A stretch of DNA of 64,000 nt from a virus (IMGVR_UViG_3300017730_000002:1-64000); one strand, 5' to 3'. Shown: positions 45,795 to 46,412, counted from the stretch's first letter. Numbers and translations: made by a program. The notes: generated from the sequence alone by a model not told the origin.

Positions 45795-46412
45795 CTAATT
45801 GATATGCTTCGGCTATTAATTAGTCTTAATCCCAAGTTGTCGGGATTTAAAATCACAGATGTTGAACTGTGATATGAATTCGTTCTAATAGACAAAACAC
45901 CGTGTAATCAGTACCTTTCTTGTAAGGGGAGCAGTTGCACACAAGGGTGGATAGGACAAAGACCTTACAGGGTTCTAAAACTATCAGTGTTATATGTAAA
46001 GAGTACGGTCTGTAAACTGTACGTGGTTGCATATGAAATTAGGGATTTGAGCTACTATCCTAGTAAAACGTAAAATGCTAAGTCTTAACTAAAAACAAAG
46101 AACTGGACAATGACGTGAAGTCTAAAGCTTATGGTGTAATTAGAAGTGCCTAATCATAGTTTAGAAATGAACTGTGTTATCCCGCAAGGGGTTGTGAATT
46201 TTATGTGCCAGCATAATTGAAGCAACACTTAATTGAGATGTCATTGGCCAATGATATTGATAGAGAGTAGAATGATTACATCTTATCCTGTTACTATGCA
46301 GTCGATCATAGTATGGCAAAGTTAATGAAGGATTTTTCTATCCGTGTGCTAACCCTTACAAATTGAGGGGTCATTAACATTTTGAACCGAGTAGTGCTAG
46401 GTTCTTTTTTAT
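45795..46412 (+). ncRNA. Candidate large structured RNA (~620 nt)
   Basis: No ORF of 60 aa or more; >10 hairpins with TTCG/GNRA-type loops; ends in a terminator-like hairpin plus T-tract. Confidence 0.6.

Follow-up and report, generated by a model that had tools for sequence, protein, structure and literature searches.

A candidate family of large structured non-coding RNAs in the early region of marine crAss-like phages

We consider it quite probable, from comparison of homologous sequences, that positions 45828-46412 of the viral contig IMGVR_UViG_3300017730_000002 constitute a plus-strand gene for a structured non-coding RNA, one that acts as RNA and belongs to a family absent from Rfam; this assessment covers the identity of the element alone, and not its mode of action. 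The DNA analysed, referred to here as the window, comprises 64,000 nucleotides (nt), the first 64 kilobases (kb) of a 109,286-base virus contig in IMG/VR that is estimated to be 93% complete. An earlier note on this DNA had proposed a plus-strand non-coding RNA of about 620 nt at 45795-46412, and the proposal stands on the strength of homologues, covariation, a pseudoknot, a terminator and borders that are nearly exact; its beginning has to be moved, in that the conserved core starts at 45828 and not at 45795. The RNA gene is about 585-620 nt long, the hairpin from 45795 being an optional 5' part, and forms a discrete cassette with sharp borders and an intrinsic terminator at its end. The family is uncatalogued, and is carried by marine crAss-like phages and by at least one unrelated large phage. 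In addition to what had been noted before, the RNA proves to be no more than the final module in a longer array, which starts near 45347.

Conserved structure of the RNA

Copies of the RNA were found in marine viral and metagenome contigs (13 full-length, one more divergent and three partial, designated here by locus numbers beginning with L), and are 73-99% identical. From the 13 full-length copies (alignment A3), RNAalifold predicted a fold of 153 pairs, of which 49 are compensatory, and gave -19.2 as the covariation term. When the curated nested structure was applied to the same alignment, 98.7% of 1948 cells were paired, and 50 of the 150 pairs had changed on both sides, against 26.8±2.9 in shuffled controls, none of which (0 of 500) reached 50; sliding the partners by one to three columns left only 4-10 such pairs. 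Covariation among homologues, a check that the earlier note had suggested, was thus found. Compensatory pairs, at least one per helix, occur in 19 of the 25 helices, among them the long-range helices 46133-46142/46273-46282 and 46321-46328/46371-46378. Seven close copies taken alone contain six compensatory pairs, compared with 0.9±0.9 in shuffles, and the L214 sequence, which was left out of the derivation of the structure, forms 137 of 149 pairs. Unpaired columns of the core are also strongly constrained, with 169 of 267 invariant, a larger share than among the paired columns. When 45795-46412 was folded as a single sequence, the minimum free energy (MFE) of the plus strand came to -159.8 kcal/mol (z -2.2 from 20 shuffles) and that of the minus strand to -126.2, a result that is suggestive and by itself not decisive.

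All of the local hairpins previously listed are present in the sequence, and each recurs in the MFE fold, in the family consensus fold or in both. Compensatory changes in the 13-sequence alignment support AATCCC/GGGATT, TCACAG/CTGTGA, GTGTAA../..TTGCAC, GATAG/CTATC, TATATGTAA/TTGCATATG, GTACGGT/ACTGTAC, ATGTCATT/AATGATAT, TACTATG/CATAGTA, GTTAATGA/TCATTAAC and GAACC../..GGTTC, and the stem of the CCC-GCAA-GGG hairpin never varies. One suggestion had to be abandoned, namely a long-range pairing of TTGTAAGGG with CCCTTACAA, the 3' partner of which is unconserved in diverged copies and the place of which is taken by a local hairpin (46354-46357 with 46367-46370). Scanning for covariation outside the nested structure yielded a sole clean pseudoknot (Table 1), whose pairing is retained in 100% of the 13 copies, with three of five pairs compensatory and two further compensatory pairs contributed by L214; by the measures in which two-sided changes are counted, the observed value is reached in no more than 2 of 500 shuffles. 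Other non-nested helices from that scan were discarded for their overlap with supported helices.

The strand on which this fold operates is indicated by its G·U pairs, which make up 13.7% of the paired cells and so place the fold in plus-strand RNA only, in keeping with the argument first made from stems that need such pairs. The same observation bears on the alternative that the region functions as DNA, whether as an origin of replication, as a site for packaging or as an array of palindromes to which proteins bind. An AT-rich conserved element (25% G+C) does lie just upstream, and perfect inverted repeats are many; however, a large number of the substitutions maintain pairing through G·U alone and would be mismatches in DNA or on the other strand, while covarying long-range helices, the pseudoknot and an oriented terminator at the end are likewise out of keeping with a DNA site. 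We give this alternative a very slight chance.

A protein-coding role finds equally little room. Internal gaps of at least 400 nt that are free of open reading frames (ORFs) number two in the whole 109-kb genome, and the RNA occupies part of the larger (44940-46431). The statement that this gap contains no ORF of 60 amino acids (aa) or more is correct: the longest has 59 aa and lies on the minus strand (translation table 11), and the alternative codes TAG=Q, TGA=W and TAA=Q opened no reading frame there. Protein remnants in the gap were sought by tblastn with 5778 ORFs from relatives, and none rose above noise. The short ORFs of 20-37 aa that every copy contains might be taken for the remains of a gene, or for a small orphan gene whose untranslated region is long and structured, but no ORF, short ones included, is common to all copies (L213 has none above 23 aa), the indels among copies have lengths that are not multiples of three and break the frame, and the substitutions track base pairing. 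Together with the missing protein match, these features reduce the chance of such a gene to one that is almost negligible.

Several structural parts listed in Table 1 merit separate comment. The 5' hairpin, with which the earlier note began, is real and peripheral: where it occurs, in the close copies and L208, A-to-G changes keep U·G pairs, and in the remaining copies it is absent or replaced by another hairpin. The central domain has an invariant closing helix and contains the long-range helices 46133-46142/46273-46282, with four compensatory pairs, and 46147-46151/46264-46269; the loop of the hairpin at 46181-46190 alternates solely between GCAA and GAAA, each of which is a GNRA tetraloop. 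In the hairpin at 46238-46257, the loop presents GGCC in 13 of 13 copies, and L214 has a different stem at this place, with a loop that presents another palindrome, GCGC. We treat this switch of palindromes as a lead and not as a finding. An intramolecular kissing interaction of the GCCA loop (46207-46210) with UGGC in the 46246 loop was considered and rejected, L214 having retained GCCA and lost UGGC. The helix that closes the 3' domain changes from U-A to C-G in four copies, and the hairpins inside it covary. The terminator stem shows changes from G-C to A-U or C-G, and its apical segment is almost invariant. Nine-base likenesses to the 530 region of 16S ribosomal RNA were also set aside, being at chance level by an estimate made without a dedicated tool.

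Table 1. Features of the ORF-free gap and of the RNA array within it (coordinates of the window)
Feature	Position	Strand	Remarks
ORF-free gap, 1492 nt	44940-46431	+	longest in the 109-kb genome
Conserved AT-rich promoter-like element	45121-45346	+	block A, block B
Module 1, structured RNA domain of ~250 nt with long-range closing helix	45351-45598	+	also L181, L182, L189, L192, L195
Module X, optional 190-nt insert	45600-45790	+	window and L195 only
Peripheral 5' hairpin, UUCG loop	45795-45823	+	close copies and L208
Conserved core of large structured RNA, ~585 nt, ~25 helices	45828-46412	+	13-copy alignment A3
Pseudoknot, loop 45837-45841 (UUGUC) with 45891-45895 (GACAA)	45837-45895	+	covariation
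Central multi-helix domain	46076-46318	+	closed by 46076-46080 with 46314-46318
CCC-G(C/A)AA-GGG hairpin, GNRA tetraloop	46181-46190	+	stem invariant
Hairpin with palindrome GGCC in loop (46246-46249)	46238-46257	+	stem with 4 compensatory pairs
3' domain, three small hairpins inside	46321-46378	+	closed by GTTAATGA/TCATTAAC
Intrinsic terminator, 5-bp stem with short helix on top, then T run	46384-46411	+	stem covaries

Distribution and exchange among phages

The window phage encodes a portal protein (920 aa) that matches phrog_6547 and, distantly, the portals of crAss-like phages of Cellulophaga, Flavobacterium and Bacteroides. Leftward genes for large structural proteins occupy 3-41702, and from about 41.9 kb they are followed by a rightward block of small genes, which is the layout of a crAss-like early region. 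Contigs related to the window are of marine metagenome origin, Tara included, and the hosts are probably marine Bacteroidota. The early region is hypervariable, to the extent that relatives with portals 76-89% identical share almost no protein or DNA within the span bounded by homologues of 40485-40808 and 49841-50083. For the two small proteins that flank the gap (87 aa and 139 aa), no relatives were found in IMG/VR, and the sole transfer RNA (tRNA) gene of the window, tRNA-Arg(TCT) at 56053-56127, lies 9.6 kb from the large RNA. The head of this region contains the second ORF-free gap (42306-42962, 657 nt), which is filled by T-tract cassettes. Over 41940-45020, 12 copies of a hairpin followed by TTTCTTTTTTTTTA(G/A/T)TT mark off mini-cassettes, most having an ATG 20-35 nt downstream; beyond 45002 the T-tract motif becomes T6-ATT..ACTTAAAAC (45593, 46400, 47095 and 47685).

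Homologues of the RNA (module 2 of the array) fall into nearer and more distant sets. As a unit, 45791-46410 recurs with 93-99% identity in L182, L189, L192, L193, L195 and L196, detected by blastn against sequences downstream of the conserved AT-rich element, and the modules upstream of the unit differ among these loci. The wider family was gathered by searching IMG/VR for exact matches to stretches of module 2 that do not vary; it includes L201, L202, L203, L206, L208, L209, L212 and L213, which are 78-86% identical over the core, a partial copy (L211), and the most diverged member, L214, at 73% identity. Two of the contigs belong to kin of the window phage, those of L201 (helicase 55% identical) and L209 (portal 64% identical), and both have the RNA at the syntenic position of the early region. 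A distant contig, that of L202, has a helicase only 27% identical, and the 166-kb contig of L214 gave no portal match.

The RNA is conserved better than the surrounding phage proteins, being 77-84% identical in the L201 and L202 contigs despite the divergence of their helicases. Its gene neighbours differ or are unrelated across contexts (L193, L201-L214), with no neighbour protein common to all. In L193 the homology ends at the T run of the terminator, which marks the 3' end of the cassette. Taken together, the better conservation and the unrelated neighbours lead us to read the RNA as a cassette exchanged between phages. It could then be asked whether the cassette spreads between phage genomes on its own account, as an RNA-based element that is selfish or mobile or as a large ribozyme of a new kind. 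The sharp borders, the varied neighbourhoods and the conservation above that of phage proteins would all suit such an element, as would a self-cleaving ribozyme found upstream in L212, and a pseudoknot, a GNRA loop and invariant unpaired bases are typical of large ribozymes. The cassette has, however, neither flanking exons nor a target-site duplication, and a gene for a nuclease, reverse transcriptase or transposase is not common to its contexts; no intron or ribozyme model was matched; and the whole early region being a mosaic, ordinary cassette recombination accounts for the mobility. An element of this kind is, in our estimation, improbable to a marked degree.

Searches in other collections served to delimit the family. 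Neither GenBank phage records, compared with 44900-46450 by blastn, nor 185,579 prokaryote genomes, scanned for exact patterns of two invariant motifs (a scan that diverged copies would escape), gave a match; when 75 related viral records were compared by BLAST with the gap and with 45347-46412, the AT-rich core alone was returned and no RNA. In two related contexts, a protein with a phosphatase domain of the polynucleotide kinase-phosphatase (PNKP) type (PF25109, E 1.4e-45) is encoded about 600 nt downstream of the RNA, at L202:2273-2743 on the plus strand and L208:968-1420 on the minus strand, a neighbourhood that may point to some connection with the repair of RNA or tRNA.

Upstream modules, transcription and possible mode of action

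The one thing common to the family in the hypervariable early region is the AT-rich element upstream of the array. It is single-copy in the window, and the nearest contigs (L097, L100 and L172) have it with 78-90% identity; the core of block A, ...TATTTTATATAGCTAAC, ends at 45246-45248, and block B extends over approximately 45306-45346. In about 25 family loci the core is found at the syntenic place and with its orientation unchanged, and in most of them an ORF begins 19-32 nt downstream. A scan of metagenome contigs for the core pattern found 28 exact-pattern marine loci, in which many contigs end 3-170 nt past the core; assemblers break where a conserved stretch meets strain-variable sequence. 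The element is probably a promoter, a replication origin being conceivable.

Between this element and the end of the RNA, about 1.07 kb (roughly 45347-46412) make up an array of swappable structured RNA domains, in which the RNA described above comes last and exceeds the other domains both in size and in spread. The consensus fold of module 1, from five close copies, has 71 pairs, four of them compensatory, and one of its internal hairpins is replaceable, L182 having a longer one. In L182, L189 and L192, module 1 directly abuts module 2 (45599 to 45791, with 6 nt between), and in L193 and L196 module 2 is preceded by other ORF-free sequence. Inserts of 72-215 nt separate block B from module 1 in L182, L192 and L195; those of L182 and L195 have, as judged by eye, their own terminal closing stem. 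Further ORF-free modules are common to L193, L097:4716-5451 and L100:4143-4685, in differing combinations and with differences that appear compensatory by eye, which suggests a pool of exchangeable RNA domains.

The contexts of the RNA are informative as to its transcription. In L182, L189 and L192, module 1 continues into the RNA without a T run. In L201, the promoter-like core lies 1.2 kb upstream of the RNA, with three small ORFs between, and the same transcription unit would thus recur in a more distant relative. Two tRNA genes stand directly upstream in L214 (tRNA-Pro(TGG) and tRNA-Ile; 4854-4928 and 5233-5308, minus strand), the RNA beginning some 60 nt after tRNA-Pro, and in L206 a weak tRNA match follows the RNA. 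The ribozyme of L212 is a hatchet self-cleaving ribozyme (RF02678, 86.7 bits against a gathering score of 51) at 10438-10575 on the minus strand, about 460 nt upstream of the RNA and on the same strand. We infer from these arrangements that the RNA is probably co-transcribed from upstream and then processed.

A position between a promoter-like element and the next genes would also befit a cis-acting leader for those genes, either an attenuator or riboswitch-like device around the terminator at 46384-46411, or a put-like processive antiterminator with which RNA polymerase would pass the many terminators of the early region. The region is indeed crowded with terminator-like sites (15 in 41500-49000, where 2.7 are expected), and the almost invariant apical loop is more than a plain terminator needs. 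On the other hand, the downstream genes vary with context, the RNA follows tRNA genes in L214, and some 585 nt with 25 helices and a pseudoknot go far beyond known cis regulators; moreover, the covariation scan showed no alternative anti-terminator pairing. A leader of this kind is therefore distinctly unlikely, and we favour an RNA that would be stand-alone and trans-acting.

For such an RNA gene, the following course of events may be envisaged. Rightward transcription early in infection, probably from the 45121-45346 element, would produce a transcript of about 1.1-1.2 kb composed of swappable RNA modules, of which the RNA would be the last unit; its 5' end may come from processing, tRNA genes or a hatchet ribozyme preceding it in other phages. 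As to its mode of action, our tentative proposal is of an RNA particle, abundant and stable and perhaps able to associate with itself by way of the palindromic loop, as in OLE and GOLLD, that would bind or sequester a host component in takeover or in defence evasion. A particle of this nature would suit an RNA that lies with other exchangeable cargo in the hypervariable early region, where it appears to be an optional accessory. Another version, which we hold to be rather unlikely, envisages an independently evolved self-assembling RNA, made early by crAss-like phages, which would dock through 46246-46249 and further contacts into a dimer or a larger assembly of RNA alone, in the manner of OLE, ROOL and GOLLD, and which would serve to capture a component of the host, perhaps one connected with tRNA or with the repair of RNA; the RNA would then be one domain of a recombining structured-RNA toolkit served by one conserved early promoter.

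Several considerations weigh against the identification of an RNA gene and its proposed action. The structure was derived from the same alignments that were used for the pair counts, which biases those counts in its favour; to be set against this, most of the covarying helices are already present in the single-sequence fold and in the list first drawn up from the window sequence. All copies are at least 73% identical, and for that reason some invariant helices escape the covariation test. In none of the contexts could a promoter be recognised immediately ahead of the core, whether of the Bacteroidota type (TAnnTTTG) or of the sigma-70 type, and the 5' end given here is accordingly tentative. 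Function is wholly inferred, and self-association hangs on one switch from GGCC to GCGC, for which the chance is about 1 in 5 in a 7-nt loop.

Relation to known RNAs

Comparison with catalogued families was uniformly negative. With Rfam 15, cmscan at the gathering score found no match for the RNA in the window or in 12 homologue loci, and at E<=10 with lax filters it returned for 44800-46600 only three chance-level minus-strand matches at 46366-46489. The covariance models of ROOL (RF03087) and GOLLD (RF01998, which includes its universally conserved 3' region) had no match in either run, and those of group I and II introns, RNase P RNA, 6S RNA, HEARO and OLE were not matched. Transfer-messenger RNA (tmRNA) genes were called neither by ARAGORN, in the window or the 13 homologue-bearing loci scanned, nor by Rfam. 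Since the covariance-model tests failed for all of the named families, the RNA is filed as a new one; of the two options in the earlier note, a divergent ROOL or GOLLD or else a new class, it is the second that fits, membership in ROOL or GOLLD finding no Rfam match even at E<=10. A highly diverged form of a known RNA (ROOL, GOLLD, OLE, HEARO, tmRNA, RNase P RNA or a group I or II intron) would be in accord with the ROOL- and GOLLD-like size and phage setting, with the tRNA neighbours in L214, and with a tmRNA-like gene in the analogous ORF-free region of phage phi14:2, but the Rfam and ARAGORN negatives extend across the window and the homologue loci, and the chance of it is slight.

Few RNAs are known that reach about 600 nt and have a complex conserved fold (OLE, GOLLD, ROOL, HEARO and raiA), and each has opened new biology or structures. 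To these the present family adds one that covaries strongly, contains a pseudoknot and is clearly organised as a gene, and it does so in crAss-like phages, which are among the most abundant phage groups. A single promoter-like element followed by a mosaic of exchangeable RNA domains is a less usual arrangement, and suggests that these phages vary an RNA payload in much the way that small anti-defence proteins made early are varied in other phages. At its length the RNA is accessible to in vitro transcription and cryo-electron microscopy, and the question of its assembly is therefore directly testable.

The evidence supports a new family of the same general kind as the large ornate phage RNAs GOLLD and ROOL. 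It resembles them in its size class (600-800 nt), in its many helices with pseudoknots, in being an optional phage gene, and in its position in L214 beside tRNA genes, where they too are often found; nor is a function known for them. It differs from both in secondary structure, in having no match to their covariance models, in hosts that are probably marine Bacteroidota, and in its setting in the window phage, among small genes of the early region and 9.6 kb from the only tRNA gene. OLE (RF01071) is comparable in length (about 600 nt) and in its many conserved unpaired bases, but it is chromosomal, belongs to anaerobic Firmicutes and has dedicated protein partners, whereas the RNA described here has no conserved partner gene and no match to the OLE model. 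OLE dimerises through a palindromic kissing loop (Kretsch et al.), and for both OLE and GOLLD, kissing loops that join molecules symmetrically were argued from switches of a loop palindrome, from GGCC to GAUC or AGCU (Kretsch et al.). By that measure, the only hint of an oligomer in the present family is the loop palindrome, GGCC in 13 copies and GCGC in L214.

The closest functional precedent is found in phi14:2, a cultured marine crAss-like phage of Cellulophaga; it and the window phage are both of the marine Bacteroidota type. Long intergenic regions after the first early genes of this phage are transcribed above most genes, and the resulting long non-coding RNAs, whose function is unknown, are present from the earliest time point and persist (Drobysheva et al., bioRxiv 10.1101/2020.03.07.982082). 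The two genomes are alike in layout: an ORF-free stretch of 1.7 kb (2905-4601 in NC_021806) begins four genes into the early region of phi14:2, and the window phage has one of 1.5 kb a few genes into its own rightward crAss-like early region. They differ in that the phi14:2 RNAs have not been assigned a described structure or family, and a search with the family profile (nhmmer) that took in the phi14:2 locus (L169) showed no similarity there. Within the phi14:2 stretch, ARAGORN calls a 470-nt tmRNA gene (4031-4500, tag GSSVQKLAMVA*), for which Rfam scores remain below the gathering score and which has no counterpart in the window. By analogy, the abundant early non-coding RNAs of phi14:2 would be the nearest guide to how the present RNA behaves during infection, and the family described here offers a defined, alignable example of such unexplained transcripts.
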